Source: Acidimicrobiales bacterium (GTDB lineage Bacteria > Actinomycetota > Acidimicrobiia > Acidimicrobiales > Bog-793). Taken from it: DNA of 64,000 nucleotides. Every line of letters begins with the position of its first letter. The stretch's first letter is position 1. Positions 2,857 through 49,301 of this stretch are shown here, piece by piece. The stretch covers positions 16,669 to 80,668 of the forward strand of contig DATKQY010000061.1 of NCBI GenBank assembly GCA_035532475.1, in the 5' to 3' direction. The position numbers and the translations under genes were made by a program. Below the pieces are notes generated by a model. It was not told the DNA's origin, ran no database searches, and saw nothing but the letters and a program-made list of their open reading frames with translations.

Positions 2857-3539
2857 GACTTCTCATCTGCGATGACCACCTGATGTTCAGCGAGGCACTG
2901 GCCTCGCTGCTGAAGGCCCGCGGCCACAGCGTCGTCGGCTGCCCGACGACGCCAGAGGGGGCGGTTGAGCTCAGCCAGGAGGAGGAGGTGGACGCGATCA
3001 TCTGCGACCTCCACTTCCCCGGGATCGACGGGTCACGATCGGTCTCGTTCCTGCGCGCCGCCCGCCCCGACACGCCGATCGTCGTCCTCACCGCGGACCC
3101 CGACCTCCGGCTCCTGCGTGAGGCGGCGCTCGGAGGTGCCGACGGCATCGCGCTGAAGATCGAAGGGGTCGAAGAGCTCGAGCGTGTGCTCCTCGAGGTG
3201 ACCTCCCCCCTGTTCACGATGGTGCGGGGGTCGTCCCCCGCACGCGAGCGGGGCTGGTCGCGGCGGGCGCGGGCCCTCGACCGCGGTCCCTCCCGCTACC
3301 GGATGGACGAGCTCCTCACCGCGCGGGAACGTCAGGTCCTCGAGCATCTCGTGCGCGGAGACGACACCTCCGCCATCGCGACGTCCCTCGGCGTCGGCAC
3401 CGCGACGATCCGTACGCATCTGCAGAACCTGTTCATGAAGTTCGGGGTCCACTCCCGACTTGAGCTGGTCGCGTACGCGATCCGTACGGGAATCGTCCGA
3501 GTGGAGAGCGGGTCGCGCGACCCCTCCCGCAGTGCGTAG
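2853..3539 (+). CDS. NarL/LuxR-family response regulator
   Basis: Receiver MRLLICDDHLMF...DAIICDLHFPGIDG. C-terminal LuxR HTH LTARERQVLEHLVRGDDTSAIATSLGVGTATIRTHLQNLFMKFGV. AAGGAG Shine-Dalgarno upstream. 4-nt overlap with the kinase gene. Confidence 0.9.
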   Translation: MRLLICDDHLMFSEALASLLKARGHSVVGCPTTPEGAVELSQEEEVDAIICDLHFPGIDGSRSVSFLRAARPDTPIVVLTADPDLRLLREAALGGADGIALKIEGVEELERVLLEVTSPLFTMVRGSSPARERGWSRRARALDRGPSRYRMDELLTARERQVLEHLVRGDDTSAIATSLGVGTATIRTHLQNLFMKFGVHSRLELVAYAIRTGIVRVESGSRDPSRSA

Positions 3540-3677
3540 GCCGGAGGCTGCGATGATGCTCGAGGCCACTGCTGAGCAGGCGGGCAGCCGGGCTACCGCG
3601 GACGGTGGAGTTCACATCGTCATGGGCGGTACGGCTCCACACTTCGCGTTAGGAAGTTCGTCCCAGAGGAGGTTGGC

Positions 3678-4361
3678 GTGAGCAGCCTCCCGGAACACAC
3701 TTCATACGTGCACCAGACGACCGTGATGATTGTCGACAGCCACCCCGTGCTCTGCGAGGCGCTGACCAACCGCTTGTCGGAAGAGGCCGACCTGCGGGTG
3801 CTCGCCACCGCCTCGTCGGCGACGGGTCTCGTCGAGCTCGTCGCGATGCATCGTCCGCAAGTGCTAGTGCTCGACGCGGAGCTGGGCGAGGCGAACGGCG
3901 CCGCGCTCATCCGTCAGATCCGAACGACCCAGCCGGGAACCGCCATCGTCCTCCTCACATGCAACGAGGACGCCGACAGCGCCGCGCACGCCATGCGCAT
4001 GGGCGCCACGGCCTTCGTGTTGAAGGTGGCTCCGGTCCAGGACCTGCTCACCGCGATCCGCTGGGCAGGCCAGGGCGAGATGTGGATGTCGCCGCCCCTG
4101 TTGACGAACCTGTTCAGCGAGATCAGGACGCGCTCGGGCGGCGAGCGCACCCGCAGCCGGCTCTCCCAGCTCACCCAGCGTGAGCTGGAGGTGCTCGAAC
4201 TGCTGGTCGAAGGGCTCAGCCACGCGGCAATCGCCAAGCGGCTGCACCTCGCGGTCAACACGGTGCGCACGCACACCCACAACCTGCAGACCAAGCTGAA
4301 CGTCCACTCCAACCTCGCCGCAGTGTCGGTCGCACTCGACGAAGGACTCCGACCCAAGTAA
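3678..4361 (+). CDS. Second NarL/LuxR-family response regulator (no cognate kinase adjacent)
   Basis: Receiver VMIVDSHPVLCEAL...VLVLDAELGEANG...LLTCNED...FVLKV. LuxR HTH LTQRELEVLELLVEGLSHAAIAKRLHLAVNTVRTHTHNLQTKLNV. GTG start preceded by GAGGAGG. Confidence 0.85.
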   Translation: MSSLPEHTSYVHQTTVMIVDSHPVLCEALTNRLSEEADLRVLATASSATGLVELVAMHRPQVLVLDAELGEANGAALIRQIRTTQPGTAIVLLTCNEDADSAAHAMRMGATAFVLKVAPVQDLLTAIRWAGQGEMWMSPPLLTNLFSEIRTRSGGERTRSRLSQLTQRELEVLELLVEGLSHAAIAKRLHLAVNTVRTHTHNLQTKLNVHSNLAAVSVALDEGLRPK

Positions 4362-4483: not shown

Positions 4484-5344
4484 ATGTCCGTCCCTCACGC
4501 AGCTGAAGTGCCCCAGGCAGGCGAGATCCTCCTCGAGCACCGCCGGCAGAACGGTGCCCGGGACGTCGCAGCCTCGCTCGAACCGGTGGCCCGCGTGAAC
4601 CCGAAGGGGTTCCCCGCGGAGGTCGCCCAGGGGCGCTCGACCGTCAGTCTCGTCATCCCGGCGAAGAACGAGGCGCGTAACCTGCCGAACGTTCTCGACC
4701 ACCTGCCGTCCTGCATCGACGAGGTCATCCTCGTCGACGGCCGGTCCTCGGACGTCACGAAGGTCATCGCCGCGACGTGCCGTCCCGACATCCGGATCAT
4801 CAGCGAGCCGGGACCTGGCAAGGGGCTGGCGCTGCGCGCCGGCTTCGCGGCCGCCCGCGGGGACATCGTCATCGCGATGGACGCCGACGGCAGCATGTCT
4901 CCTGCGGAGATCCCCCAGTTCATCTACTTCCTGGAGCACGGCTTCGACTTCGTGAAGGGTTCGCGCTTCATCGGTGGCGGCGGTTCGCTCGACATCACGA
5001 CGATCCGTCGCATCGGCGACCGGGCGCTTCTGTACGCGGCCAACTTCATCTACCGGGCGAAGATCACCGACATCAACTACGGGTTCTACGCGTTCAAGCG
5101 CCAGTACCTCGAGCACCTTGACCTCCGCTCCTCGGGCTTCGAGATCGAGGCGGAGCTGATGATCAGGGCGCTCAAGGCGGGGCTGCGAATCGCCGAGGTG
5201 CCGAGTCTCGAGATGCCCCGCCGTGCCGGTCGCTCCAACCTCCACGCCTTCCAGGACGGTCAGCGGGTGCTGCGAACCCTGCTCTCCGAACGGAAGCGCC
5301 CGACCTCGCTCCCCCAGCCCTCGCGAGCGAACGGGCTGTCATGA
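4484..5344 (+). CDS. GT2 glycosyltransferase, polyprenyl-phosphate sugar synthase-like (DPM1/GtrB type)
   Basis: VSLVIPAKNEARNLPNVL...EVILVDGRSSD...PGKGLALRAGFAAARGDIVIAMDADGS...FVKGSRF...GFYAFKR. AAAGGAAGG Shine-Dalgarno 8 nt before the ATG. Confidence 0.85.
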   Translation: MSVPHAAEVPQAGEILLEHRRQNGARDVAASLEPVARVNPKGFPAEVAQGRSTVSLVIPAKNEARNLPNVLDHLPSCIDEVILVDGRSSDVTKVIAATCRPDIRIISEPGPGKGLALRAGFAAARGDIVIAMDADGSMSPAEIPQFIYFLEHGFDFVKGSRFIGGGGSLDITTIRRIGDRALLYAANFIYRAKITDINYGFYAFKRQYLEHLDLRSSGFEIEAELMIRALKAGLRIAEVPSLEMPRRAGRSNLHAFQDGQRVLRTLLSERKRPTSLPQPSRANGLS

Positions 5345-6780
5345 CCGCGACGGCCGATTTCGGCCGTCGCGTGGTGGCGCCGCCGCGTATCGGCGCGCGG
5401 GATTCTGGGCCTGCCGCCGGCGCGGCGGGCACATTCCGGCCTGTCCTGGTGCTGGAAGCAGAGCTCGAGCGCGGCCTGCGGGACGTACTCGATGCCGTGC
5501 AGCACCGGGGCACGAAGACCGCGGGCACACCACGCGCCGCGCTCGTGCTCGTGAGGATCCACAGCCACCCGCTCGGCCTCGTCGCGCTCGACCTCGAGGC
5601 GGACGACCCATCGAGCGCGTGGCCGATCGCGGTCCGCAGCCGCGTCGGCGCCGCGCTCGACGCCCACCTCGGCACTGACGGTCTCGACGGCTACGACATC
5701 TGGGGGGGTGCGCCTGCGCTGCAGCCGGCGTGCCTCGCGGAGCGGCGCGCCGCGCTCGCCGCGGCACGACCGGTGACGGTGATCATCGCGACGAGGGAGC
5801 GCCCGGCCCGCCTGGCGCGCTGCCTCGACTCGTTGCTCGCGCTCGAGTACCCGGACTTCGACGTCGTCGTCGTCGACAACGACCCGGAGACGGACGAGTC
5901 GAAGCGCCTGGTCGAGACGCGCTACGTCCCGACGGGCCGCGTCCGCTACGTACGCGAGACCGAGCGCGGCCTCGGCGCCGCGCACAACTGCGGGCTCAAA
6001 GAGGCGCGCGGCGAGATCGTCGCGTTCACCGACGACGACGTGCTGGTCGACGGGCACTGGCTGAGCGAGCTCGTGATCCCCTTCGTCGCGGACCCGAACG
6101 TCGGCGCCGCGACCGGGCTGATCGTCCCCGCCGAGCTGGAGACGCCCGCACAGGTGATGCTCGAGGCGCACGGCGAGTTCTCGAAGGGCTTCACGCCGCG
6201 TTCGGTCGACCTGGCGGCGCACCGCCCGGCCGACCCCCTCTTCCCGTTCACCCCCGGCAGGTTCGGATCCGGTGCCAACATGGCGTTCGAGACCGCTTGG
6301 CTGCGCGGCGCCGGAGGCTTCGACCCGGCGCTCGGGACGGGCACGACGGCACGGGGTGGCGACGATCTGGAGGCGCTCTTCCGTCTCGTCGTCTCCGGAC
6401 GCGCCCTCGCCTACCGTCCCGGCGCGGTCGTCTGGCACCACCATCATCGGGACATGTCGGCGGTCGAGCGCCAGGCGCACGGCTACGGTGTCGGGCTCGG
6501 TGCCTACCTCACGAGCGCGCTCTTCGAGGAGCCACGAGCGGCGCTGTCGATGGTCACGCGTCTGCCGGCGGCCGTGCGGCACGTCCGGGCGCGCACGGGG
6601 GCCGGATCGGTCGCCTCGAGCGAGCTCGGCGCAGCCCTCGGCTGGACGCCGTCGTGGCCCCGTGCCCTCGTGCGTGCCGAGTGGCGCGGGATCGCGACGG
6701 GCCCGTTCGCCTACCTGAAGAGCCGCCGGGAGCACCCCCGCAGGATCCCCTTCGCCAGCGCGGGAGGGACGAGGCCGTGA
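5341..6780 (+). CDS. GT2 glycosyltransferase with a ~130-aa N-terminal extension
   Basis: VTVIIATRERPARLARCLDSLLALEYPDFDVVVVDNDP...GLGAAHNCGLKEARGEIVAFTDDDVLVD (DxD). ATGA overlap with the upstream GT2. Confidence 0.85.
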   Translation: MTATADFGRRVVAPPRIGARDSGPAAGAAGTFRPVLVLEAELERGLRDVLDAVQHRGTKTAGTPRAALVLVRIHSHPLGLVALDLEADDPSSAWPIAVRSRVGAALDAHLGTDGLDGYDIWGGAPALQPACLAERRAALAAARPVTVIIATRERPARLARCLDSLLALEYPDFDVVVVDNDPETDESKRLVETRYVPTGRVRYVRETERGLGAAHNCGLKEARGEIVAFTDDDVLVDGHWLSELVIPFVADPNVGAATGLIVPAELETPAQVMLEAHGEFSKGFTPRSVDLAAHRPADPLFPFTPGRFGSGANMAFETAWLRGAGGFDPALGTGTTARGGDDLEALFRLVVSGRALAYRPGAVVWHHHHRDMSAVERQAHGYGVGLGAYLTSALFEEPRAALSMVTRLPAAVRHVRARTGAGSVASSELGAALGWTPSWPRALVRAEWRGIATGPFAYLKSRREHPRRIPFASAGGTRP

Positions 6781-9599
6781 CGCTCCACGCGACCGCGACC
6801 GACGACCGCCTCGACGTGCTCGCCCCCGACCCGGCGCTTCGCGCCGTCGTGGCGGGGCCTGCGCGGCCGATCGCCCTCGCGGACCTGTTGAACGATCTCG
6901 GGACGCTCGTGAGGCTCCTCCACGGCGCCCTGAGCGCCGGCGACCTCCTCGACGCCTTCCTCCTCGCTGCTGGTGCGCAGCAGATCGTGGAGGACCGTCT
7001 CGGCGGCCAGCGGCGACTCACCCTGCGGCGTGCCGCCGGGCATCTTGGGGGCCGGCCCGGCCTCGTCCCCCGCACGCTCGGCCGGGCGCTGCGCGCCGTC
7101 GACGCAGCGCTCGTCCGCCTGGGATCCTGGCGCCGCCTCGGGCGCGCGCTCGCCCGGGAGGCCGACGCCACGACCGACTTCCTCGTCGGGCTCGCCCACG
7201 CGCTGCTCGGCGACCCCCCGGGCCAGCAGGAGATGGCCAGGCTGCAACGGCAGGGTCGCGAGCTGGTCTCGCGCCTCGGCGAGCTGGCGCCGGCGCTGGC
7301 GGGCGAGGTTGTCCGGCTGCCCTCGTGCTTCCGCAGCTTCGACCAGCGCCCGGCCGACGTCGTCGCGATGGTGACGACCTTCGCGAGTCGTTGGCCCGAG
7401 CGATCCCGGCCGATCTCGGTCGTCGGACTGCGGACATCGGGTGGCTACCTGGCGCCACTTTGCTCAGCTGCCCTCGAGCGACTCGGCTACGCCTCGGTGA
7501 CGACGATGACCGTGCGCCCGGGCTGGCCGCTTCGACGCCGCAACCGTGCCCTTCTCGGCGCGACGGCGGAAGCCGGCGGGATGGTGCTGGTCCTCGACGA
7601 CCCGCCGGCGACCGGCAAGTCGATCGCCCGCGTGGTGAAGGACCTCGGCCGGGACGCCGGCATACCGTCGGAGTCGGTCGTGCTCCTCCTCGCCACGTTC
7701 GCGGAGGAGGCGTCGCTGCCCGCGCTCGTGGACTGTGGCGCCTCGGTCCTCCTGCCACGCTCGGCGTGGGACGTCGAGCGGCTCCTCCAGCCCGCCTGCG
7801 TGGCGCGCACCCTGGCCGGGCTGCTGCCCGAAGGCAGCGTGGTCCACCGGGTCGAATCGCTCGGTGAGCCGCACCGACCGGTGCGCGGCCATGTCTCCGC
7901 CCGCTACCGGGTCGAGACGAGCGACGCAGTCGGCGACACCGTGCGTACCGAGACGATCGTCGCGGAGGGGGTCGGCCTCGGCTACCTCGGCCGGCACGCG
8001 CTCGCCGTCGCCGAGTCGGCGCCCGAGCTGTACCCGGACGTCCTCGGCGTGGAGAACGGCATCTGCTACCGCCGCTTCCTGCCCGAGGCCTGGCGTCTCG
8101 ACGGCACCCGCCCCGCGCCCGCCACCGCCGACCGCCTCGCTGCCCACGTGGTGCGCCGGGAGCGGGCGCTCAGGGTCGAAGAGGACCGCAGCACCCTCCT
8201 GAGCGGCCGCCAGCCGGCGTGGGAGATCGCCGCGGACCTCGTGGCCCGGACGCTCGGCCCGCTCGGCGTCCCGCTGCGCCTCCCCCTCGTCGATCCCGTG
8301 GTACGGCGGCTCCTCGCCGTCGAGCACCCGACGGTCGTCGACGGCTCGACCGCGCGCGGAGGCTGGTTCCTCAGCCCGACCGGTCCGGTCGCGCGGCGCA
8401 CCGACTTCGCTGAGGGTCCGTTCAGCCACTTCGACCTGGCGAGCTACGACGCCGCCTTCGACCTCGCCGGCGCGACGGTGGCTGTGGGCGACCCCAGGTT
8501 CGCCGCCCGCCTCCGCAGCTCCTACGAGTCCCTGGCGGGCCGGAGCATCGACGCCGAGCGATGGATGCTGCTGCGCCTGGTCCACCTGTGGGATGCCGAG
8601 CGGCTCGAGCTCGCCGCCCCAGCGATGGTGCGCCGCGCCGGCGCTCGCGTGCTCCAGGAGTACGTCGCCGAGCGCTTTCTCCGCGACCTCGCGCCGGTCG
8701 AGGACGGTCCGACCTGTGCGCTCGACCTCGACGGCGTGCTCGAGACCGGCACGCTCGGCTTCTCGGCGACGACCCTCGCCGGGGCGATGGCGCTGCGGGC
8801 GCTTCGGGCCCACGGCTACCGCGTCGTCCTCGCCACCGGGCGCAGCCTCGGCGAGGTCATCGAGCGGTGCGCGGCCTACGGGCTGGCCGGCGGCGTCGCC
8901 GAGTACGGCTCGGTCGCCTACGACCACCTCCGCGGGGAGAGCACCGAGCTCGTCGCGAGCGGCGACGAGGCGGCGGTCGAGGCGTTGCGGGCCGCCCTCC
9001 GCGGCCAACCCGAGCTCACCCTCGACGGGGACTACCCCAGGATCGTCCGCGTCTCGCGCACCCGCGCGGGGCGCACGCGGCGTGGCCTCGACGCCGAGAC
9101 CGTCGCCGGCCTGCTCGAGACGCCCGGGACCGGCGATCGCCTCACGGCGATCCCCGGCGAGTACCAGACCGACTTTGCGGCGACCGGGGTGAGCAAGGAC
9201 CAGGCGCTTTGCGTCCTGCTCGACCAGCTCGACGGTGCCGGCGGGGTCCGCCGGGATCCTGGACACCGCCTCGAGCTGGCCGTCGGCGACGGCCGCGCCG
9301 ACGTCGGGATGCTCCGGCTCGCGCGCCTCGGGCTGGCCCCAGCCAACGCTGACGAGGTGATGCGCCGCAGCGGTGCCTCCGTCCTGAGGCGCTCCTACCA
9401 GGCGGGCCTCGGCGATGCCGTCGGCCGGCTGCTCGGCCACCGGCCAGGCAGCTGCCCGGCGTGCCGGCTGCCCGCGCTCACCCCAGACGCCCGCGAGCTG
9501 CTCGCGCTGGTGTCGGTGCAAGAGGGTGGTCGGCGGGGCGCGCCGGGGCGCCTCCTCGGGCTCGCGGCCGGCGCCGTCCGGGGTCTGTGGCGGACATGA
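6777..9599 (+). CDS. 940-aa multidomain protein: helical N-domain, phosphoribosyltransferase-like domain, kinase-like (apparently degenerate) middle region and HAD-IIB phosphatase domain
   Basis: Real start taken as GTG 6777 (GTGA overlap with the GT2 stop) inside track ORF 5730..9599. PRPP-loop-like MVLVLDDPPATGKSIARVV. HAD motif I CALDLDGVLETG, Lys motif GVSKDQAL, motif III AVGDGRADVGML. Confidence 0.7.
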   Translation: MTLHATATDDRLDVLAPDPALRAVVAGPARPIALADLLNDLGTLVRLLHGALSAGDLLDAFLLAAGAQQIVEDRLGGQRRLTLRRAAGHLGGRPGLVPRTLGRALRAVDAALVRLGSWRRLGRALAREADATTDFLVGLAHALLGDPPGQQEMARLQRQGRELVSRLGELAPALAGEVVRLPSCFRSFDQRPADVVAMVTTFASRWPERSRPISVVGLRTSGGYLAPLCSAALERLGYASVTTMTVRPGWPLRRRNRALLGATAEAGGMVLVLDDPPATGKSIARVVKDLGRDAGIPSESVVLLLATFAEEASLPALVDCGASVLLPRSAWDVERLLQPACVARTLAGLLPEGSVVHRVESLGEPHRPVRGHVSARYRVETSDAVGDTVRTETIVAEGVGLGYLGRHALAVAESAPELYPDVLGVENGICYRRFLPEAWRLDGTRPAPATADRLAAHVVRRERALRVEEDRSTLLSGRQPAWEIAADLVARTLGPLGVPLRLPLVDPVVRRLLAVEHPTVVDGSTARGGWFLSPTGPVARRTDFAEGPFSHFDLASYDAAFDLAGATVAVGDPRFAARLRSSYESLAGRSIDAERWMLLRLVHLWDAERLELAAPAMVRRAGARVLQEYVAERFLRDLAPVEDGPTCALDLDGVLETGTLGFSATTLAGAMALRALRAHGYRVVLATGRSLGEVIERCAAYGLAGGVAEYGSVAYDHLRGESTELVASGDEAAVEALRAALRGQPELTLDGDYPRIVRVSRTRAGRTRRGLDAETVAGLLETPGTGDRLTAIPGEYQTDFAATGVSKDQALCVLLDQLDGAGGVRRDPGHRLELAVGDGRADVGMLRLARLGLAPANADEVMRRSGASVLRRSYQAGLGDAVGRLLGHRPGSCPACRLPALTPDARELLALVSVQEGGRRGAPGRLLGLAAGAVRGLWRT

Positions 9600-12001
9600 G
9601 CGCCATCGTCCAGGATCCGCCCCTGCGCCACCGGGGCGTCACGTCGTTCGCGCGCGAGCTGCGTGAGCCGCTGTTCCGCAACGGCCTCGCGCTGGTGCTC
9701 AGCTCGCTCGCCACCGGCGCGATCGGCGTGCTCTTCTGGCTGCTCGCGGCGCGCTTCTACTCGCCGGCCGTCGTCGGCCGGAACTCCGTCGCCGTCTCCA
9801 CCTTGATGTTCATGGGCGGCGTCGCCCAGCTGAACCTCGCGAGCGCGCTCATCCGCTTCATCCCGCCCGCCGGCCGATCGGTGCGCCGGCTGGTCGTGTG
9901 CGTCTACGCGCTCAGCTCGGCGATCTGCGCCGGCCTCGCGATCGTCTTCCTCCTCCTGGTCGGCCACCTCGTCCCGAGCCTCGCCTACCTCCGCAACGAC
10001 CGGTGGCTGCCGATGTGGTGGGTGCTGTCGAGTGTCGCCTGGGCGATCTTCGTGCTGGAGGACGGTGCGCTCACCGGCCTTCGCCGGGCCCCGATCGTGC
10101 CGATCGAGAACGCGGGCTTCTCGCTGCTCAAGGCGGCGATCGTCATCCCCTTCGCCACGATCTTCCCGACGACCGGGATCTTCGTCGCCTGGACCTTGGC
10201 GACGATCGTGACCATCCTGCCGACGAACATCTACATCTTCGGCCGGGCGATCCCGCTCGCCCACCGGCGTTCCCCCGTCGGCGGAGTGTCCGTGCGCCAG
10301 ATCGCGCGGTTCACCCGTTACGACTTCGTCGGCTCGATCTTCTGGCTGGTCGCGGTGTCGCTCCTGCCGGTGATGGTGATCCGCGAGGTCGGGGCCACGA
10401 AGAGCGCCGCCTTCTCGCTCGCGTGGGTGATCTCGTACTCGTTGTACATGGTGAGCATCAGCATGGGCTCGTCACTCGTCGTCGAGACCGCCGTCGACCA
10501 GTCCCAGCTGGAGCTGCAGTGCCGGCGCGTGATGGCGAACCTCGCAAAGCTGATCACGCCCGCGGTGGTCGTCCTCCTCGCCGGCGCCCCGTTCATCCTC
10601 AAGCTGTTCGGCCACAGCTACTCGGCGGACGGTGCCAACGCCCTCAGGCTGCTCGCGCTCTCCGCGCTGCCCTTCATCGTCAACGGCACCGCCGTCGGCG
10701 CGCTGCGGGCGCGGCGGCGCATGGTCCCGGTCGCCGTGCTGAACATCGGCATGTGCATCTCGGTCGTGGCGATCAGCTGGATCCTGCTGCCGCGAGTCGG
10801 CATCGTCGGCGCCGGCGTCGCGTGGCTCGTCACCCAGTGCGTCGCCGCTGTCGCGATGTTGGCGGCGCGGCGCCTCTGGCTACGGCCGGACTACCGCTTC
10901 CCCGGCATGCGCGCCTGGCTGACCGGACTCTCGCTCCCGCTCGTCCGCCTCGCCGCCAACGCCTCGTTGCCGGAGGTCGTCACCCGCCTGCGCTCGAGCC
11001 GGAGCACCGGCCGGCTGAAGGCGCAACTGCCGAGCGAGGTCGTCGCCGACCTGACCCGCTCGGCGGGCCGGGGCCGGCGACAGCTCGGCGAACTGGAGGT
11101 CCTTCCGAGCGCATCCGACCTCACGGTCGCGATCCTCCACAGCACCGACGGCAAGCCATACGCGGTCGCCAAGGTGCCGCGCACCGACCGGGCCTGCGCC
11201 GACCTGCGCCGCCAGGAGTCGGTGCTGCGTGTGCTCGCCGCTGACGACCGGCTCGGTACCTGGCGGCGCTTCCTTCCGAGCTTCAAGCTCCACGAGCACG
11301 AGCAGCACACGTACGCCGTCGAGTCGCTCGGTCGGGGCGTCGATGCGGCGGGGCTGCTCGGCGGGGCGTCGGCGTCGGCGCTCGCGATCGCCCGGCGCTC
11401 GCTCAAGGCGATCGGCGACCTCCACGAGCGCACGGGCCGCGAGGTCGTGGTCGACGAGCTGCTCTTCGAGCAGCTCCTCGAGCCGTCGCTGCGCCCGCTG
11501 CGCCGGTCGCACCCGTCCGGCATCGTGCCGGCGTCCCAGCTCGTGGCGCTCGCCCGGCTGGAGGACCGCCTACGCGAGGCCAGCATCGGGCGCACCGTCC
11601 CGATCAGCTGGGTCCATGGCGACTTCACGCCGGGCAACGTGATGCTCACCGCCGACGGGGCGCGCGTCACGACGCTGCTCGACTGGGGTCAGGCCCGCCC
11701 CGACGGCATCCCGGCGTTCGACGTCCTCCTGTGGGTCTTCGCGCTGCGCTGCCGGGCTGGCGGCCACCAGTTCGGCGCGGAGGTCCGCCGCGTCATGAGG
11801 TCCGCCGACTGGTCCGGCGATCCCGTGCTCGCGCTTGCCTCGAAGACGCTCGAACGGACCGACATCGCCGCAGGCGACCTCGCGCTCTGGTGCTGGCTCG
11901 ACCACGTCGCCGGCAACCTCGACAAGTCCGAGCGCTACGCACGTCACCCCCTGTGGTGGACGTCGAACGTCGAGCCCGTGCTGCGCGAGGTGGCAGCATG
12001 A
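9596..12001 (+). CDS. Wzx/MOP-type polysaccharide flippase (about 12-14 TM) fused to a C-terminal APH/choline-kinase-type phosphotransferase domain
   Basis: ATG 9596 (ATGA overlap) inside ORF 9461..12001. The N-terminal ~480 aa are polytopic (LALVLSSLATGAIGVLFWLLAARFYSPAVVGRNSVAVSTLMF...). The C-terminus carries the kinase catalytic loop WVHGDFTPGNVML and the DFG-equivalent LLDWGQARPDG. Confidence 0.75.
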   Translation: MSAIVQDPPLRHRGVTSFARELREPLFRNGLALVLSSLATGAIGVLFWLLAARFYSPAVVGRNSVAVSTLMFMGGVAQLNLASALIRFIPPAGRSVRRLVVCVYALSSAICAGLAIVFLLLVGHLVPSLAYLRNDRWLPMWWVLSSVAWAIFVLEDGALTGLRRAPIVPIENAGFSLLKAAIVIPFATIFPTTGIFVAWTLATIVTILPTNIYIFGRAIPLAHRRSPVGGVSVRQIARFTRYDFVGSIFWLVAVSLLPVMVIREVGATKSAAFSLAWVISYSLYMVSISMGSSLVVETAVDQSQLELQCRRVMANLAKLITPAVVVLLAGAPFILKLFGHSYSADGANALRLLALSALPFIVNGTAVGALRARRRMVPVAVLNIGMCISVVAISWILLPRVGIVGAGVAWLVTQCVAAVAMLAARRLWLRPDYRFPGMRAWLTGLSLPLVRLAANASLPEVVTRLRSSRSTGRLKAQLPSEVVADLTRSAGRGRRQLGELEVLPSASDLTVAILHSTDGKPYAVAKVPRTDRACADLRRQESVLRVLAADDRLGTWRRFLPSFKLHEHEQHTYAVESLGRGVDAAGLLGGASASALAIARRSLKAIGDLHERTGREVVVDELLFEQLLEPSLRPLRRSHPSGIVPASQLVALARLEDRLREASIGRTVPISWVHGDFTPGNVMLTADGARVTTLLDWGQARPDGIPAFDVLLWVFALRCRAGGHQFGAEVRRVMRSADWSGDPVLALASKTLERTDIAAGDLALWCWLDHVAGNLDKSERYARHPLWWTSNVEPVLREVAA

Positions 12002-14817
12002 CGGACGTGCTCGCACCCCCGACCTGCGCGATCTCGGTCGTCGTCTGCGCGTACACCGAGGAGCGATGGGATGAGATCAACGCGGCCGTCGCCTCGTTGC
12101 GAACCCAGAGCATCCCCGCCGAAGAGATCATCCTCGTCGTCGACCACTGCCCGAGCCTCCTCGCCCGGGCCCGGCGCGCCTTCGCCGACATTCATGTGAT
12201 CGCGAGCGTCGGGCGGCCGGGACTGTCGGGCGCCCGGAACACCGGCTACGAGGCGGCACACGGTGACGTGGTGGCGTTCCTCGATGACGACGCCACGGCG
12301 GCTCCGGACTGGCTCGAGCAGCTGCAGCGCACCTACCAGGACGGCGAGGTCGCCGGCGTCGGCGGCCTCGTCGTGCCGAACTGGGTCGACCACCGCCCGG
12401 GCTGGTTCCCGGAGGAGTTCGACTGGGTGGTCGGCTGCTCCCACTCGGGGATGCCGTCGGCGACCGCCGACGTGCGCAACTTCGTCGGTGCCAACATGTC
12501 GTTCCGCCGCGACGTGCTCGTCGGCCTCGGCGGTTTCGCCGGCGTGCTCGGCCGCAACGGCGCCGACGCCTCGGGCTGCGAGGAGACCGAGCTGTGCATC
12601 CGGGCCTCGACGTGGCACGAGCACAGCCGCCTCGTCTACGAGCCTGCGGCCCGCGTCGAGCACCGCGTGCCGCGGGCCCGGGGCACCTGGAAGTACTTCC
12701 TCCGCCGCTGCTACGGCGAGGGCAAGTCGAAGGCGCTCGTCCGAAAGATCGCCGGCGCGCAGCACGGGCTGTCCGAGGAGCGGATCCACGTCCGCAGGAC
12801 GATCCCGCTCGCCGTCGCCCGCTCCATCGGCGAGGCGCTACGGGGACGTCCGGTGGCGGGCCTGCGCGCCGTGGCCAACGTCACCGGCACTGGCGTCACC
12901 GTGCTCGGCTACGCCGTCGGCCGCGCGGCCCTGCTGCGCGGCACGGCGCGCCCGCACGAGCGGCTCGCCCCCCCGACGGCGAAGCGGTTGGCTCCTGGCC
13001 GGATCGTGGTGCGGACCTGGCTCGGGGGGACCGCGCTCGGCGCCGGCGCGCTGACGCTCGGCCTGGCGCTGTGGATCACGACGATGGTGCGGGGCGTCCC
13101 GCTCGGCCGCATGAGCGACCTCGGCCTCGTGTCGGTGCTGCCGGCGACGTACTGGGCCGCGCTCGTGCTCGTCACCGTCAGCTTCTGCTCGACGGTCCGG
13201 CGGATGGAGTCGAGCAAGGCGTTGCTCGTCGCGCACGTCGTGCTGCTGCTGGCGATCCTGCACCTCACCCCGAACGTCCTCTACGAGACCCTCCGGTACT
13301 CATGGGCGTGGAAGCACGTGGCGATCACCAACGGTGTCATCGCCCATCACGGCGTGAACACCGCGCAGCCCGACCCGAACCTCGTCGCCTATCAGGACTG
13401 GCCGGGTTTCTTCACCCTGAACGCGCTCTTCTCGTCGGGCTCCGGTTTCGCCTCGCCGCTCAGCTACGCCGGGTGGGCCCCGTTCGTCAGCGAGCTCTCC
13501 TACGCCGGGCCGCTGATCCTCATCTTCCGCACGTTCTCGGCCGACCAGCGGATCCGCTGGACGGCGCTGTGGATCTTCTACCTCGGCAACTGGGTCGGCC
13601 AGGACTACTTCTCGCCGCAGGGCTACGCCTACTTCCTCTACCTCACCGTGATCGCGCTGTGCCTGCGGCACTTCGCGTCCGCGCGGGCCGGGGCGTCATC
13701 GCTCGACGTGGGACCGGCCGCCGTCGAGGTCGCCGAGGAAGCAGCCGAGCAACGGCGGCACGATCGGCGCCTGTACTACCTGTTCACGGTGATCATCATC
13801 GCGGCGGTCGCCTCCAGCCACCAGCTCACCCCGTTCATGATCGTGAGCGCCCTCGCGCTCCTCGCCCTCTTCGGCAGGCTCCGCTACAAGTCGCTGCCGG
13901 TCGTCGCCCTCGCCCTCACCGTCGGCTGGATCGCCTTCGCGGCGCGCACGTTCATGAAGCAGAACATCCCGAGCCTGATCAAGGGTTTCGGTGACCTGCT
14001 GTCGAACACCGCCGTCCAGATGGTCAACCCCGGGCAGGCGAGCTCCCTGCAGCTGTTCGGCTCCGAGGTCGACCGTCTCCTCACCGCCGCCGTGATCCTG
14101 CTCGGCGCCTTCGGCTTCCTGTGGCGCTGGCGCAACGGCCAACAGCGCGCCTGGTTCCCGGCGGCGCTGCTCTGCGCCTCGCCGATGCTCGCCCTCGCGG
14201 CGAACAACTACGGGGGCGAGATCGTGTTCCGCGTCGTGCTGTTCGCGCTCCCCTTCCTCGCCGTGCTCGCCGCGTCGCTGTTCGTCCCGGCGCGCCACCG
14301 GCCGGGACGGCGCCACCGGGTGCACAACGCGGCCAGGCTCGCGGTCGTGGCGGCGCTGCTCGGCGGCTTCATCATCTCCTACTACGGCAAGGAACGGACG
14401 AACTACTTCCCGCCCGAGGAGGTACAGAGCTTCTCCGCCCTCTACCGCCTCGCCCCTCCCGGATCGCTCATCGTCGCCGCGACCGGCAATCAACCGTGGC
14501 CGCTCGAGAACTACGAGACCTACAGCGACTACTACTTCACCGCCGACACGCCCCAGGCACTCGCCGACGTCATCAAGCACCCGGTCGCCGTGCTGGCCCA
14601 CGACCTGACGGCGAGGAAGGACGCGTTCTTGGTGTTCGACACGACCGACGACGCGGTGATCGAGAGCACCGGGTTGATGCCGCGGGGCGCGTACGGCGCC
14701 GTCGAGCGAGCGGTGCTCGCGTCGCCCCGGTTCAAGGTCCTGCTACGGAACTCGACGACCGTCGTCCTCGAGCTCGCCTCGCGTGGCGCGTCCACCACGC
14801 AGCCGGTGAACGCATGA
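11998..14817 (+). CDS. GT2 glycosyltransferase fused to a ~14-TM domain with a C-terminal soluble domain (GT-C- or polymerase-like topology)
   Basis: ATG 11998 (ATGA overlap). GT2 part: ISVVVCAYTEERWDEINAAVASLRTQ...GLSGARNTGYEAAHGDVVAFLDDDA...FPEEFDWVVGCS. About 14 hydrophobic helices follow, then a ~130-aa hydrophilic tail. Confidence 0.75.
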   Translation: MTDVLAPPTCAISVVVCAYTEERWDEINAAVASLRTQSIPAEEIILVVDHCPSLLARARRAFADIHVIASVGRPGLSGARNTGYEAAHGDVVAFLDDDATAAPDWLEQLQRTYQDGEVAGVGGLVVPNWVDHRPGWFPEEFDWVVGCSHSGMPSATADVRNFVGANMSFRRDVLVGLGGFAGVLGRNGADASGCEETELCIRASTWHEHSRLVYEPAARVEHRVPRARGTWKYFLRRCYGEGKSKALVRKIAGAQHGLSEERIHVRRTIPLAVARSIGEALRGRPVAGLRAVANVTGTGVTVLGYAVGRAALLRGTARPHERLAPPTAKRLAPGRIVVRTWLGGTALGAGALTLGLALWITTMVRGVPLGRMSDLGLVSVLPATYWAALVLVTVSFCSTVRRMESSKALLVAHVVLLLAILHLTPNVLYETLRYSWAWKHVAITNGVIAHHGVNTAQPDPNLVAYQDWPGFFTLNALFSSGSGFASPLSYAGWAPFVSELSYAGPLILIFRTFSADQRIRWTALWIFYLGNWVGQDYFSPQGYAYFLYLTVIALCLRHFASARAGASSLDVGPAAVEVAEEAAEQRRHDRRLYYLFTVIIIAAVASSHQLTPFMIVSALALLALFGRLRYKSLPVVALALTVGWIAFAARTFMKQNIPSLIKGFGDLLSNTAVQMVNPGQASSLQLFGSEVDRLLTAAVILLGAFGFLWRWRNGQQRAWFPAALLCASPMLALAANNYGGEIVFRVVLFALPFLAVLAASLFVPARHRPGRRHRVHNAARLAVVAALLGGFIISYYGKERTNYFPPEEVQSFSALYRLAPPGSLIVAATGNQPWPLENYETYSDYYFTADTPQALADVIKHPVAVLAHDLTARKDAFLVFDTTDDAVIESTGLMPRGAYGAVERAVLASPRFKVLLRNSTTVVLELASRGASTTQPVNA

Positions 14818-15302
14818 GCGCCGGCCGCGTCCCCGTCGAGCACCCGCAGTCGCGTCGAGGCGCCCTCCGGCTCGAGCCCTCCCCGGAGCTCCTCCTCGCG
14901 CTGTCCGGCTGGGTCGCCGTCGCCATCGTGGCGTTGCAGGCGCCGGTTCCCCTCCGCACGATCGCCGTCTTCGGCTTCTCCGCCTCCGGGCCGGGGTTGG
15001 CACTCACCGCCTTTCTCGTGCGGCGCGACCGGCTCGAGCGCTTCGTGCTCACCCTCGCGCTCAGCCTCGCCGTCGCCACCTTGGTGAGCGAGGCCTTGGC
15101 GCTCGCCCACGCCTTCAGCGCCCTCACAACGCTCGTGACGCTGGCAGCCCTCACGACCGTTCTCGTCGGGGTCCACGCCCGCGACCGCCTCGCCGGACCC
15201 GGGCGGCGAGCCGCCCAGCTGCTCAGCCGTGCCTTTCTCGGCCCCGAGGAGGAACGCAAGGCCGCCATGCCCCCGCGGCCCAACAAGGAGGTTGTGGCAT
15301 GA
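14814..15302 (+). CDS. Small 4-TM membrane protein, function unknown
   Basis: ATG 14814 (ATGA overlap) within ORF 14121..15302. Four hydrophobic segments (LLLALSGWVAVAIVAL, IAVFGFSASGPGLALTAFLV, FVLTLALSLAVATLVSEALALA, LTTLVTLAALTTVLVGV). The gene is overlap-coupled on both sides. Confidence 0.55.
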   Translation: MSAGRVPVEHPQSRRGALRLEPSPELLLALSGWVAVAIVALQAPVPLRTIAVFGFSASGPGLALTAFLVRRDRLERFVLTLALSLAVATLVSEALALAHAFSALTTLVTLAALTTVLVGVHARDRLAGPGRRAAQLLSRAFLGPEEERKAAMPPRPNKEVVA

Positions 15303-16141
15303 ACGCCATGCCGATCCCGATCCTGCTGTACCACGCGGTATCGCCGGATCCGCCGCGCTGGCTCGAGCCGTGGAACGTCACCCCGGAGGTGTTTAGCGAG
15401 CAGCTCGACACGATCGTCGAGAACGGCTGCACGCCGTTCACGGTGTCGGGGCTGGTCGACATGCTCATGTCGCACAAGGAGCTGCCCGAGCGCCCGGTCG
15501 TCATCACCTTCGACGACGGCTTCGCCGACTTCGCTACCTACGCGGCGCCGGCACTCGCGGAGAGGGACATCCCGAGCACGATCTACGTGACGACGGGCAC
15601 CCTCGCCGGGCGGCAGGGCGCTCGTGACGTGAAGCTGCCGCCGGCCGCCATGCTCAGCTGGTCGGACCTCGCCGGGCTCGAGGGGCACGGCGTGGAGATC
15701 GGCGGGCACTCCCACACGCACCCCGAGCTCGACACGCTCTCCGCCGAGCGCGCGGCAGCCGAGATCCTGCGGCCGAAGGAGCTGCTCGAGGACGTCCTCG
15801 GCCACACCGTGCCGAGCTTCGCGTACCCGCACGGCTACTCGAGCCCGCGCATCCGGCGGATCACCGCCGAGGCAGGGTACGAGTCGGCCTGCGCGGTCCG
15901 CAACGCCTTCAGCTCCGTCTCGGACAACCTCTACGCCCTCTCGCGCCTGACCGTGCGGGACTTCACCCCGATGTCGACGCTGTCGGCCTGGTCGCTCGGC
16001 ACCGGTGCCGAGGTGGCGCCGCCGGGCGAGCGCCGCAGGACGCAGCTCTGGCGCTGGTACCGCAGGGCGCACCTCGACTCCATCGCCGGCGCGCCGTTCG
16101 CCGCGGCCGCGGCGCGAGGCGCTGACGAAGCGAGCCGATGA
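15299..16141 (+). CDS. Polysaccharide deacetylase (CE4, NodB homology domain)
   Basis: NodB motifs VVITFDDGF and GGHSHTHPEL, plus AYPHGY. CAAGGAG Shine-Dalgarno. ATGA overlap with the upstream gene. Confidence 0.85.
   Translation: MNAMPIPILLYHAVSPDPPRWLEPWNVTPEVFSEQLDTIVENGCTPFTVSGLVDMLMSHKELPERPVVITFDDGFADFATYAAPALAERDIPSTIYVTTGTLAGRQGARDVKLPPAAMLSWSDLAGLEGHGVEIGGHSHTHPELDTLSAERAAAEILRPKELLEDVLGHTVPSFAYPHGYSSPRIRRITAEAGYESACAVRNAFSSVSDNLYALSRLTVRDFTPMSTLSAWSLGTGAEVAPPGERRRTQLWRWYRRAHLDSIAGAPFAAAAARGADEASR

Positions 16142-35295: not shown

Positions 35296-35299
<4 letters not shown>
33275..35299 (+). CDS. glgE: Alpha-1,4-glucan:maltose-1-phosphate maltosyltransferase GlgE
   Basis: GTG 33275 inside ORF 32309..35299. 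SWYECFPRS...GFDVLYLPPIHPIG...FRVDNPHTKPF...FLSEAFTRPKVM...YFRPNVWPNTPDIL. Confidence 0.92.
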
Positions 35300-38745
<3,446 letters not shown>

Positions 38746-38747
38746 GC

Positions 38748-47182: not shown

Positions 47183-49301
<2,119 letters not shown>

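Follow-up and report, generated by a model that had tools for sequence, protein, structure and literature searches.

The gene at 9596-12001 of this locus seems to join a flippase for lipid-linked glycans and a kinase in one protein. Two questions are raised: whether the fusion is real, and what a kinase tethered to a flippase might phosphorylate. Both were addressed in the window (the whole stretch of 64,000 nucleotides analysed here) and in related loci of other genomes.

The fusion gene and its integrity

The gene is single and uninterrupted, and encodes 801 aa plus stop. Its ORF extends over 9461-12001 (+), and the ATG at 9596 was taken as the start. This ATG overlaps the stop of the upstream gene (ATGA, 9596-9599); the 3' end overlaps the downstream start at 11998 (ATGA). 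The features are:

9596..12001, + strand: whole fusion gene, Wzx-like flippase, linker and APH-fold kinase (one coding frame, AlphaFold2 model)
9668..10870, + strand: predicted MOP/Wzx-type flippase domain, aa ~25-425, 12 TM helices, N-in/C-in (hydropathy, AlphaFold2, Foldseek)
10871..11083, + strand: Arg-rich helical linker, aa ~426-496 (AlphaFold2 model, homologue alignment)
11084..11998, + strand: predicted APH/eukaryotic-like kinase fold domain, aa ~497-801 (Pfam PF01636, PDB profiles, Foldseek)

Third-position GC is high (0.86-1.00) in the same frame along the full length, including the supposed junction near 11030, so the gene contains no frame change. The AlphaFold2 model of the whole protein has a pLDDT of 92.7 and a pTM of 0.85. 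The apparent fusion could be an artefact, by frameshift or assembly merge of two genes, or a resistance APH lying by chance beside a flippase. The closest MAG (L001/L008, 87% identity) indeed shows the region broken into several ORFs, and the kinase gives faint NCBIfam matches to the APH(3') and Mph families (best E-value 0.006, far short of the cut-offs). However, that break falls within the flippase and not at the flippase-kinase junction, in an assembly that also fragments the genes upstream and downstream. An independent assembly (L087), 88% identical, carries the intact 801-aa gene. Flippase-kinase fusions were found in 37 genomes of several phyla, and the genomic context is always glycan biosynthesis, which argues against a resistance gene. 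The continuous frame, L087 and the 37 genomes rule out a two-gene merge or a stray resistance APH for practical purposes, and we regard either as extremely improbable. The fusion is genuine and conserved; the sequencing error near 11030 that the original prediction had considered is not there.

The flippase domain

Twelve TM helices were found by hydropathy and by the AlphaFold2 model alike. The top Foldseek matches of the model are the structures of WzxE, the lipid III flippase (9g9n/9g9p; E 1e-7 to 3e-7, 418 aligned columns, TM-score 0.74-0.76 on target). MATE and MurJ rank after WzxE, with the MurJ structure 6nc6 at rank 9 (rmsd 10.6). The predicted cytoplasmic loops of the window protein contain 27 K+R, versus 5 in the outer loops (alignment means 23.1 and 3.1, respectively). 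The even number of TM helices together with this bias places both termini, and hence the kinase, in the cytoplasm, as had been proposed.

Family searches were less uniform. Of the Pfam families expected at the outset, PF01636 was matched by the kinase, but PF01943 and PF13440 were unmatched in the window protein at E<=10, as was PF14667; the flippase half has no match of its own in Pfam or NCBIfam even at this threshold. Several homologues of the fusion carry precomputed PF01943 matches, and a Rhodococcus homologue scores 19.4 bits with PF01943, below the cut-off of 28.2. The structural model identifies the N-terminal half as a Wzx-type MOP flippase, with predicted transport of a lipid-linked glycan, in agreement with the original prediction.

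The linker and the kinase domain

Residue conservation and linker lengths were determined from 58 full-length homologues. The linker is poorly conserved, is 24-120 aa long and contains no extra TM helix; the model has helices at 438-455, 459-477 and 480-491 (pLDDT ~73-87).

Pfam APH (PF01636) matched aa 504-728 with 48.2 bits (cut-off 23.2; E 1.5e-12), and 51.8 bits were obtained with the kinase domain alone; it fell into no specific subfamily. The PDB profile matches include the macrolide 2'-phosphotransferase 5igh (E 6e-9), several APHs and the kinase domain of ACAD11, whereas Hanks kinases appeared only at E>0.2. A bilobal kinase fold is supported by Foldseek, which matched the domain to APH(2'')-Ib, -IIa and -IVa (E 4e-5 to 1.5e-4). 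The kinase motifs quoted earlier were all found: AVAKVPR with K526 (nt 11171-11173), the catalytic loop WVHGDFTPGNVML with H674, D676 and N681 (H674-G-D676 at nt 11615-11623, N681 at nt 11636-11638), and LLDWGQA with D696 (nt 11681-11683).

Among the 58 homologues, K526 is conserved in 54, H674 in all 58, D676, N681 and D696 in 55 each, and D709 in 58. The six residues are the beta3 Lys (K526), those of the catalytic loop (H674, D676, N681), the metal-binding Asp (D696) and a structural Asp (D709). The complete set occurs together in 54/58 fusions, and all are present in the window protein. The alpha-C position (column 540), where a Glu would pair with the beta3 Lys, is Q in 27/58 and E in 24/58; the window protein has Q540 followed by E541. 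A small clade (P0020-P0022; 3/58) retains the fused domain but has lost K, D, N and D, which implies that the domain also has a non-catalytic role. The conserved C-lobe residues W767, H770, W787 and N791 are read as a small-molecule or sugar pocket. The protein terminates at aa 801, inside the kinase C-lobe, and neither a methyltransferase nor a coiled-coil domain was found in the fusion gene by Pfam or AlphaFold2. Judged from its sequence, the C-terminal half is a cytoplasmic APH-fold small-molecule kinase with a complete catalytic core.

The surrounding gene cluster

The fusion is the fourth gene of an operon in which all junctions from 5341 to 15302 overlap by 4 nt, and the operon is translationally coupled. 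The other genes are:

1912..4361, + strand: histidine-kinase-like ATPase and two LuxR-type response regulators, just upstream of the cluster (Pfam)
4484..5344, + strand: GT2a, DPMS/ArnC/GtrB/GpgS-like family-2 glycosyltransferase (Pfam GT2, PDB profiles)
5341..6780, + strand: GT2b, second family-2 glycosyltransferase, 479 aa (Pfam)
6777..9599, + strand: upstream partner, 940 aa, with helical N-domain, PRTase-like, choline-kinase-like and HAD phosphatase domains and a C-terminal H/C/C motif
11998..14817, + strand: GT2c fused to a ~600-aa polytopic membrane domain, MEM (Pfam GT2 on aa 13-174 only)
14814..15302, + strand: small membrane protein, 162 aa, weakly DUF1616-like, conserved following MEM
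15299..16141, + strand: CE4 polysaccharide deacetylase (Pfam PF01522, E 9e-25)
16185..17189, + strand: membrane-anchored GH16 (SKN1/KRE6-like), glycoside hydrolase or transglycosylase (Pfam); start deduced from the ORF and the 334-aa L087 homologue

Among PDB structures, GT2a best matched the dolichol-phosphate mannose synthase of Pyrococcus (5mlz, E 3e-17); ArnC, GpgS and GtrB came next. GT2a is a candidate initiating polyprenyl-phosphate glycosyltransferase; no canonical phosphoglycosyl transferase was seen in the cluster. The PDB matches of GT2b are chondroitin synthase and other GT2 enzymes. The MEM domain recurs in 63 loci; searches of Pfam and the PDB placed it in no family, and it was assigned to neither Wzy nor GT-C. 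The GT2c-MEM protein is a candidate polymerase or transferase. The Rhodococcus homologue of the small membrane protein has a weak PF07760 match. The three GT2s, the polytopic membrane protein, CE4 and GH16 are conserved across related loci, and the histidine kinase and LuxR regulators are syntenic in the relatives L001, L002 and L087. No ABC transporter was seen in the cluster, which uses the MOP flippase, and no nucleotidyltransferase or LicD-type transferase in the inspected clusters. With this gene content, the operon specifies an envelope glycan.

The gene immediately upstream of the fusion had been said to encode a second, degenerate kinase-like module, and this was borne out. Purpose-built HMMs place its domains at 6831-7298 (NTD), 7305-7781 (PRT), 7812-8693 (KL) and 8700-9488 (HAD), and its AlphaFold2 model has a pLDDT of 91.7. 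The type-I PRTase-like domain carries VLVLDDPPATGKS, and PF00156 matches several homologues. The kinase-like domain has a LicA/choline-kinase fold (Foldseek: pneumococcal LicA, 4r7b, and human choline kinase, E 1e-4 and weaker), but its catalytic loop is without the canonical His and Asn, so it is partly degenerate. The HAD domain is a HAD-IIB (Cof-type) phosphatase with an intact DxD motif; the protein matches Pfam Hydrolase_3, and the model matches HAD-IIB phosphatases in Foldseek (TM-score 0.8).

Distribution and evolution

The fusion is widely distributed. More than 55 full-length homologues (30-51% identity) were found in Actinomycetota, Chloroflexota and one Doudnabacteria MAG, so that the flippase-kinase pairing spans three bacterial phyla or more. 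Of 79 genomes, 37 have the kinase as part of the flippase protein, 19 encode it separately in the same locus (adjacent or nearby) and 23 lack it. The upstream partner is present in 27/56 kinase loci versus 0/23 kinase-less loci. In the flippase tree, fused and split forms are interleaved. Gene boundaries also shift: a Gaiellaceae locus has the HAD protein and flippase joined and then a separate kinase, whereas Rhodococcus and Mycolicibacterium elephantis have flippase, kinase, GT2 and membrane domain as a single protein of ~1,700-1,750 aa. Among the best 150 representatives of the kinase family, 69 are fusions, in which the kinase occupies roughly aa 480-800. Stand-alone proteins of ~330-400 aa make up about half of the family and retain an Arg-rich, hydrophobic or amphipathic N-terminal extension.

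These counts, the interleaved forms and the kinase-linked partner show the kinase to be an accessory module within a conserved glycan cluster. Since 23 of the 79 related clusters have a close flippase with no kinase, phosphorylation is not generally required by the flippase family.

Comparison with known systems

The combination of a flippase and a kinase had been called an undescribed arrangement, but it is preceded in kind by mycobacterial MurJ/MviN, a MOP flippase with a cytoplasmic pseudokinase domain (PMC6180346, citing Gee 2012). The databases also already hold the present architecture, many entries under automatic two-part names, and no paper on this flippase-APH kinase architecture was found in the literature. 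MurJ/MviN (Rv3910, the lipid II flippase) resembles the fusion protein in being a MOP flippase with a cytoplasmic kinase fold after the last TM helix. Its domain is of the Hanks type, a pseudokinase that binds FhaA and that PknB phosphorylates. In contrast, the kinase of the fusion protein is APH-type with conserved catalytic residues. Both proteins are found in Actinomycetota. MurJ has 14 TM helices, whereas the fusion protein has 12 and WzxE as its best structural match. MurJ continues past the pseudokinase with another TM helix and an extracellular domain, whereas the fusion protein ends with the kinase and has no further TM helix or extracytoplasmic C-terminal domain. MurJ belongs to the peptidoglycan pathway, and the fusion protein to an accessory glycan cluster. 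The 12 TM helices, the intact APH-type kinase and the C-terminus at the kinase set the fusion protein apart from the MurJ/MviN type.

The precedent raises another explanation, that the domain might gate or organise the flippase and its assembly complex and leave the glycan unmodified. To this end it would bind a nucleotide, phosphorylate itself or other proteins, or serve as a docking site for the upstream protein, much like the MurJ/MviN pseudokinase, which recruits FhaA (PMC6180346). The pTM of 0.85 suggests a domain docked in a fixed way on the flippase; the upstream protein, with its own degenerate kinase-like domain, occurs only alongside the kinase, and clade P0020-P0022 keeps the domain with its catalytic residues lost. 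However, the complete catalytic set in 54/58 fusions points to catalysis, the kinase belongs to the APH small-molecule branch and not to the Hanks type, and the C-lobe residues look like a substrate pocket. A purely regulatory or scaffold domain is thus quite improbable.

In E. coli O9a, WbdD adds a phosphate to the sugar at the end of a polyprenol-linked glycan (PMC3482155). It resembles the role proposed here for the fusion, as a eukaryotic-like-fold kinase acting on a polyprenol-linked glycan at the cytoplasmic face. However, WbdD is soluble or peripheral, combines its kinase with a methyltransferase and a coiled coil, is unfused to a transporter, comes from another sequence family and serves an ABC-transporter pathway, whereas the fusion protein has a Wzx-type flippase. 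The WbdD modification governs exporter recognition, i.e. phosphorylation is used as an export licence. The absence of the methyltransferase, the coiled coil and the ABC transporter sets the fusion apart from the WbdD type. The LPS-core kinases WaaP and KdkA also have a protein-kinase fold; their targets are sugars on a lipid-anchored glycan, which they phosphorylate in the cytoplasm, ahead of the flipping of this glycan by MsbA. Both are soluble proteins encoded on their own and belong to the Kdo/WaaP family (PF06293), and their substrate is lipid A-core and not a polyprenyl-linked unit. We know of no fusion of these kinases to a flippase.

The pneumococcal lic locus places LicA, a choline-kinase/APH-fold kinase, and TacF, a Wzx-type teichoic-acid flippase that prefers decorated cargo, in one pathway, as in the cluster here. 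The product of LicA is a soluble precursor, which needs LicC (cytidylyltransferase) and LicD (transferase). In contrast, counterparts of LicC and LicD are absent from the clusters here, and the lic kinase and flippase are separate genes.

The window also encodes a TreS-maltokinase (Pep2/Mak) fusion at 35170-38745, made up of a trehalose-synthase-like domain and an APH-fold kinase. Like the flippase fusion, it covalently joins an APH-fold sugar kinase to a protein of its own pathway, but that partner is a soluble enzyme and not a transporter. The synthase supplies the substrate of the kinase, and the product, maltose-1-phosphate, is a soluble glycosyl donor.

In ACAD10, lipid head groups are the substrates of an APH-type kinase and of its HAD phosphatase (bioRxiv 10.1101/2025.09.10.675409). 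ACAD10/ACAD11 resemble the fusion and its partner in pairing these two activities, which are directed at hydroxyl or phosphate groups on lipid-like substrates. They differ in being eukaryotic mitochondrial/peroxisomal proteins of ether-lipid and hydroxy-acid metabolism, with neither a transporter nor a glycan.

Possible function of the tethered kinase

Alternatively, the APH domain might act on a soluble small molecule. It would then phosphorylate a free sugar at C1 (as NahK, AmgK and maltokinase), or an alcohol or acid, for example choline, ethanolamine or glycerate. The product would feed the PRTase/HAD protein and GT2 decoration or priming chemistry, and the fusion would do no more than ensure co-expression or a local supply. 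The solved structures nearest to the kinase are all of soluble small-molecule kinases, and about half of its family stands alone. The partner combines a Cof-type sugar-phosphate phosphatase with a choline-kinase-like fold; GT2a is similar to GpgS/MpgS-type synthases, which use phosphorylated soluble acceptors and are followed by a HAD phosphatase. Kinase presence is also tracked by no flippase residue: no alignment column, charged or otherwise, tells kinase-associated from kinase-less members. On the other hand, repeated independent fusions to a flippase (with linkers down to 24 aa) and to a membrane GT would be odd for an enzyme with a diffusible product. The N-terminal extension of the stand-alone forms also speaks against a soluble product, as does the lack of a nucleotidyltransferase or phospho-group transferase to consume it. 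This explanation is rather unlikely.

The preferred reading, with a probability of roughly 45%, is that the tethered kinase phosphorylates a polyprenyl-phosphate-linked glycan intermediate or a membrane-bound precursor, coupling decoration to export. Working at the membrane with ATP (or GTP), the kinase would place a phosphate on a hydroxyl of the lipid-linked intermediate, or of the membrane-bound precursor directly before it, where the flippase opens to the cytoplasm. In this way, decoration of the glycan unit would be coupled to its export. The upstream protein might extend the phospho-intermediate by PRPP-dependent transfer and/or trim it by dephosphorylation.

Several lines of evidence favour phosphorylation of a lipid-linked substrate. 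The full catalytic set in 54/58 fusions speaks for catalytic competence. The many fusions, the gene boundaries that shift by lineage, the interleaved tree and the kinase-linked partner argue for a functional coupling of flippase and kinase. Linkers down to 24-33 aa and the hydrophobic or amphipathic extension of stand-alone kinases suggest that the kinase stays near the membrane. The inspected clusters, with no nucleotidyltransferase or LicD-type transferase to make a donor, seem to lack a soluble activation route. Precedents are WbdD, the ACAD10 kinase/HAD phosphatase and the TreS-maltokinase fusion.

Other observations weigh against it. The 23 kinase-less clusters imply that the flippase family manages with no kinase in general, and a flippase adapted to phosphorylated cargo might show a kinase-tracking column, which was not seen. 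The cytoplasmic HAD sugar-phosphatase of the partner suits a soluble sugar-phosphate equally well, and one of the closest solved relatives of GT2a is glucosyl-3-phosphoglycerate synthase, an enzyme whose phospho-acceptor is soluble. The domain is kept in 3/58 fusions despite loss of catalytic residues, and the window protein has Gln at the position of the alpha-C Glu.

The idea that phosphorylation might serve as a flipping checkpoint is plausible. A stronger version, a substrate-modifying flippase, is unlikely: phosphorylation of the polyprenyl-linked glycan by the tethered kinase, at the entrance on the cytoplasmic side, would license translocation and possibly provide its energy input, and the PRTase/HAD partner would build on or reset the phosphate. 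If this were true, ATP hydrolysis would be chemically coupled to a MOP-type flippase, akin to group translocation.

Significance

The locus defines a widespread, unstudied envelope-glycan gene cluster of Actinomycetota and Chloroflexota. No function has been assigned to two of its protein families, the polytopic membrane domain of ~600 aa and the PRTase/kinase-like/HAD protein. Should the kinase only make a soluble precursor, the finding would shrink to a gene fusion that is unusual but ordinary. Cargo selection and directionality of Wzx-type flippases are a long-standing question, and the flippase here has a conserved enzyme physically joined to it, an attachment made and broken repeatedly in evolution. 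Cultured hosts exist, including Mycolicibacterium elephantis, Rhodococcus sp. CH91 and T7, Streptacidiphilus pinicola and Streptomyces levis. These hosts and the fusion permit a direct test of whether the export of a lipid-linked glycan is tied to its chemical modification.

Gene structure and operon context

The flippase-kinase gene lies at 9596-12001 of the plus strand. In the ORF list, the plus-strand frame is open from 9461 to 12001; the ATG at 9596 overlaps the stop codon of the upstream gene (ATGA) and gives the 801-aa product. The original prediction had raised the possibility that two genes were merged by a sequencing error near 11030. The third-position GC content stays at 0.86-1.00 in one frame throughout 9600-12000, including this junction; thus, there is no sign of a frameshift-generated merge. 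In the closest MAG (L001/L008; MFD04492.bin.3.97, contig_8530; 87% identity), the region falls into several ORFs. There the fusion gene is interrupted within its flippase part, and the genes on either side are broken up as well; each of the three occupies 2 or 3 ORFs. The independent assembly L087 (88% identical) contains the whole operon intact, including the 801-aa flippase-APH gene. Since L087, about equally identical to the window, has these genes intact, this MAG probably carries frameshift errors in the cluster region. The continuous frame, the intact L087 gene, and the fusion in 37 genomes rule out an error merge, and the fusion is real. That it should be an artefact, or simply a resistance gene, is hardly credible.

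Within a tightly coupled operon, the fusion gene stands fourth; neighbouring genes overlap by 4 nt at 5341, 6777, 9596, 11998 (the start of the downstream gene), 14814, and 15299.

Genes of the operon, all on the plus strand
4484-5344, plus: GT2a; best solved relative dolichol-phosphate mannose synthase, then ArnC, GpgS, and GtrB
5341-6780, plus: GT2b, family-2 glycosyltransferase
6777-9599, plus: partner protein, 940 aa, multidomain
9596-12001, plus: flippase-kinase fusion, 801 aa
11998-14817, plus: GT2c-MEM, a GT2 with a ~600-aa polytopic membrane domain (MEM)
14814-15302, plus: small TM protein, weakly DUF1616-like
15299-16141, plus: CE4 polysaccharide deacetylase
16185-17189, plus: membrane-anchored GH16 glycoside hydrolase

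Upstream of the operon are genes for a histidine-kinase-like protein and two LuxR response regulators. The gene order is repeated in other lineages at 51%, 37%, and 35% identity. The MEM domain (12900-14817, the C-terminal ~600 aa of its gene) has no Pfam, NCBIfam, or PDB relative; the family gave only single-member matches at E>0.01 (EpsG, Wzy_C). Assignment to Wzy, the O-antigen ligase family, or GT-C failed on these isolated matches. Homologues occur in 63 loci (e.g. L002:13345-15048), and always adjoin a small TM protein of ~120-160 aa. The invariant residues (alignment A3 numbering, window:13000-14814) are H106, W134, F137, F138, W198, Q201-D202-Y203, P206-Q207, H274, T277, Y404, E407, and R411. 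MEM probably serves the cluster as its polymerase or transferase.

In other genomes, the extracytoplasmic enzyme that recurs most constantly in the cluster is GH16, which some Kitasatospora clusters encode as a fusion with the small TM protein. Immediately past the operon in the window, a prolyl-oligopeptidase-family gene (17424-19286, minus strand) lies between two SKN1/KRE6-like GH16 genes, that of the operon and a second one (19335-20243, minus strand). In a 1,191-aa ORF (35170-38745, plus strand), the N-terminal half is like alpha-amylase and trehalose synthase, and the C-terminal half contains a maltokinase N-cap domain. It is a TreS-maltokinase fusion; the window thus encodes two APH-fold kinase fusions, of which this one is of a well-known type. 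It adjoins a GH77 4-alpha-glucanotransferase gene (38679-40871); an isoamylase-like gene (47166-49301, minus strand) lies further along.

Structure and topology of the fusion protein

Pfam and NCBIfam gave no match for the N-terminal 500 aa, with a limit as loose as E<=10, so the earlier label "Wzx-like" had to be tested by structure. The AlphaFold2 model, built on an alignment of 58 full-length homologues, was confident throughout (mean pLDDT 92.7, pTM 0.85). Its top Foldseek match in the PDB was the lipid III flippase WzxE (9g9n/9g9p; E 1e-7 to 3e-7; TM-score 0.74-0.76 normalised on the target; about 418 aligned columns), followed by MATE transporters and MurJ. The label is borne out by the fold.

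Both hydropathy and the model give the flippase twelve TM helices. The predicted cytoplasmic loops of the fusion contain 27 K+R residues and the outer loops 5; across the alignment the means are 23.1 inside and 3.1 outside, with an excess of at least 11 in every sequence. In the homologues, TM12 and the kinase are joined by an Arg-rich, poorly conserved linker of 24-120 aa, and several linkers are too short for membrane crossing. An extra TM helix in the linker, which would place the kinase outside, was ruled out by the same shortness, the Arg-richness, and insufficient hydrophobicity. Because there are twelve helices, a K+R excess inside, and a linker without a membrane crossing, the kinase domain is placed in the cytoplasm. 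The helix count is even; an odd count was what the original prediction had named as counting against it.

The kinase half matched the Pfam APH family (PF01636) at aa 504-728 (48.2 bits against a cut-off of 23.2; E 1.5e-12). The three motifs quoted in the original prediction, AVAKVPR (K526), WVHGDFTPGNVML (H674/D676/N681), and LLDWGQA (D696), are all present in the 801-aa product. Foldseek matched this half to APH(2'') enzymes, and a profile search of PDB sequences found macrolide 2'-phosphotransferase (E 6e-9), several APHs, and the ACAD11 kinase domain. For the subfamily, NCBIfam gave matches at E>=0.006 only (APH(3')-V, thiamine kinase, Mph). The set K526-H674-D676-N681-D696-D709 is complete in 54 of 58 fusions. 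The alpha-C position, normally Glu, varies between Q and E within the family, and is Q540 followed by E541 in the window protein; the Gln tempers the predicted kinase activity, without disqualifying it. In a small clade of three related homologues, P0020-P0022 (790-814 aa), Lys, the catalytic Asp, Asn, and the metal-binding Asp have been lost together, which makes these proteins natural pseudokinase versions of the fusion. Because they keep the domain after losing the catalytic residues, a structural role of the kinase domain is also hinted at.

Mycobacterial MurJ/MviN has an intracellular pseudokinase domain, which is phosphorylated by PknB and recruits FhaA (PMC6180346). With this precedent, the earlier claim that flippase-kinase coupling is undescribed has to be qualified. 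Literature searches found nothing specific to the Wzx-APH fusion or its gene cluster. The fusion differs from the MurJ/MviN type in every feature compared: it has 12 TM helices instead of 14, an intact APH-type kinase instead of a dead Hanks-type kinase, and neither the extra TM helix nor the outer domain of MurJ/MviN. A regulatory or scaffolding role like that of the MviN pseudokinase is quite unlikely; P0020-P0022 could be read in that direction, and the residues retained in most fusions in the other. The Actinoplanes EPS cluster, with a separate kinase-like WpsI, is merely loosely comparable. The fusion joins a small-molecule kinase, predicted to be catalytically competent, to a Wzx-type flippase.

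Distribution of the fusion and comparison across loci

The protein database contains more than 55 full-length fusion homologues (30-51% identity), many with automatic names. A kinase-domain query of a word-indexed protein database gave 8 matches and missed known fusions, and an exhaustive search of representatives was used instead. With the kinase domain alone, it found 1,204 representatives at E<=1e-3. Among the best 150 of these, 69 are 730-1750 aa long and have their kinase at about residues 480-800; about as many stand alone, at 280-410 aa. A taxonomic scan with one genome per species found the full-length fusion in Actinomycetota (Acidimicrobiia, Gaiellales, Solirubrobacterales, Rhodococcus, and Streptacidiphilus), in Chloroflexota (Anaerolineae and relatives), and in one Candidatus Doudnabacteria MAG. 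In Rhodococcus sp. CH91 and Mycolicibacterium elephantis (WP_164890138, WP_165604944), a ~1,700-1,750-aa flippase-kinase-GT2-membrane protein is annotated merely as "glycosyltransferase". Both are cultured carriers, as are Streptacidiphilus pinicola and Streptomyces levis, the latter with the split form. The Wzx-APH fusion is widespread, and already stands unremarked in databases.

Per-domain HMMs were run on all six frames of 79 genome loci; loci with no kinase within ±8 kb were classed as kinase-less.

Kinase arrangement and occurrence of the partner protein
Kinase in the same ORF as the flippase: 37 loci, partner in 14
Kinase as a separate gene in the locus: 19 loci, partner in 13
Kinase absent within ±8 kb: 23 loci, partner in 0

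The partner is found in 27/56 kinase loci versus 0/23 kinase-less loci. The three classes share a core of GT2a, GT2b, GT2c, MEM, the small TM protein, CE4, and GH16. The gene boundaries are variable. In a Gaiellaceae locus, one gene encodes the partner joined to the flippase, and the next a separate kinase of 327 aa; other orders are kinase/partner/flippase and flippase/partner/kinase; flippase-kinase-membrane occurs in three loci, and flippase-kinase-GT2-membrane in two. The stand-alone kinases have a linker-like N-terminal extension, hydrophobic or amphipathic and Arg-rich. In a neighbour-joining tree of the flippase domain, built with no bootstrap, fused and split forms are interleaved and the kinase-less flippases form their own clades; this pattern is suggestive only. 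No flippase residues tracking kinase presence, such as added basic ones, were found at thresholds of 80/20 or 60/30, with kinase-less clades that are few and phylogenetically clustered. The kinase-flippase association is conserved whatever the gene boundaries, and the kinase and the partner are accessory modules within a conserved glycan cluster.

Some clusters add a sugar C-methyltransferase (PF08421/PF08484) and a FemAB-like/Acetyltransf_6 protein (L049:4339-5601, L049:15329-16531, L007:6642-7673), which suggests lineage-specific methylation or aminoacylation of the cluster glycan.

The partner protein

The AlphaFold2 model of the partner (6777-9599) is confident (pLDDT 91.7, pTM 0.92). Its family (homologues P0121-P0205, ~900 aa) has a helical N-terminal domain, a PRTase-like domain, an atypical choline-kinase-like domain, a HAD-IIB domain, and a C-terminal H/C/C motif; some members are fused to GT2, PAP2, or the flippase itself. 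Conservation extends to the type-I PRTase signature VLVLDDPPATGKS, and PF00156 matches several of the homologues. The C-terminal part resembles Cof-type HAD-IIB sugar phosphatases (Foldseek TM-score up to 0.80), with D650, D652, K807, D838, and D842 invariant. The middle domain matched pneumococcal LicA and human choline kinase (Foldseek E 1e-4 and weaker); it keeps the catalytic-loop Asp and the DF-type Asp, and the His and Asn are absent. The degenerate kinase-like module predicted upstream of the fusion was therefore correct at the fold level. Compared with the fused kinase by hhalign as a possible paralogue, it gave a non-significant E of 0.3, with catalytic-loop regions that align sensibly. 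The PRTase and phosphatase domains suggest that the partner may catalyze phosphoribosylation and then dephosphorylation.

Proposed function

The reading tentatively preferred here, with a probability of about 0.45, is that the kinase would act at the membrane and phosphorylate a polyprenyl-phosphate-linked intermediate to be exported by the flippase; the partner would process the same phospho-intermediate. It is preferred because tethering arose repeatedly, with some very short linkers; because some lineages fuse the kinase further to a membrane GT; and because the listed clusters contain no nucleotidyltransferase or LicD-type user of a soluble phospho-precursor. There are also precedents: WbdD, a kinase-fold enzyme acting on lipid-linked glycans (PMC3482155), and the APH + HAD pair of ACAD10, acting on lipid head groups (bioRxiv 10.1101/2025.09.10.675409). 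WbdD combines kinase and methyltransferase in a protein of its own that works in an ABC-transporter pathway, whereas the kinase of the fusion is tethered to a Wzx-type flippase. Phosphorylation of a lipid-linked glycan, as by WbdD, can control export. That phosphorylation should be an obligatory, energy-coupling licence for flipping is quite unlikely for the fusion.

Evidence against the membrane-acting kinase comes from the kinase-less sister clusters, the flippase residues, none of which was found to track the kinase, and the clade with catalytically dead domains. Moreover, the sugar-phosphatase-type HAD and the GT2a, which is like GpgS-type synthases, fit a soluble phospho-acceptor route equally well. 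A kinase for a soluble precursor is the main rival, somewhat unlikely with no nucleotidyltransferase or LicD-type enzyme at hand, and an ordinary fusion of pathway enzymes is a viable reading. The observation of the original prediction is confirmed, and its interpretation is partly supported; the mechanism, phosphorylation of the lipid-linked intermediate as a checkpoint or gate of flipping, is an inference.

Kinase-less and kinase-containing cluster types both occur in the genus Kitasatospora. In Kitasatospora and its relatives Streptomyces and Streptacidiphilus, the kinase-less cluster has the order GT2a, GT2b, GT2b, flippase, GT2c, CE4, MEM, and small TM protein-GH16, and the kinase cluster the order flippase, partner, kinase, MEM, and GH16. 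Two paralogous versions are found, in L064-L068, L074-L076, L078, L080, L081, and L083 and in L038, L042, L058, and L061, respectively. Such paralogous clusters offer a natural way to compare the chemistry of the glycan when the kinase is present and when it is not. Both the repeated tethering of the kinase and its partner's strict co-occurrence with it merit experiment, and cultured hosts exist.
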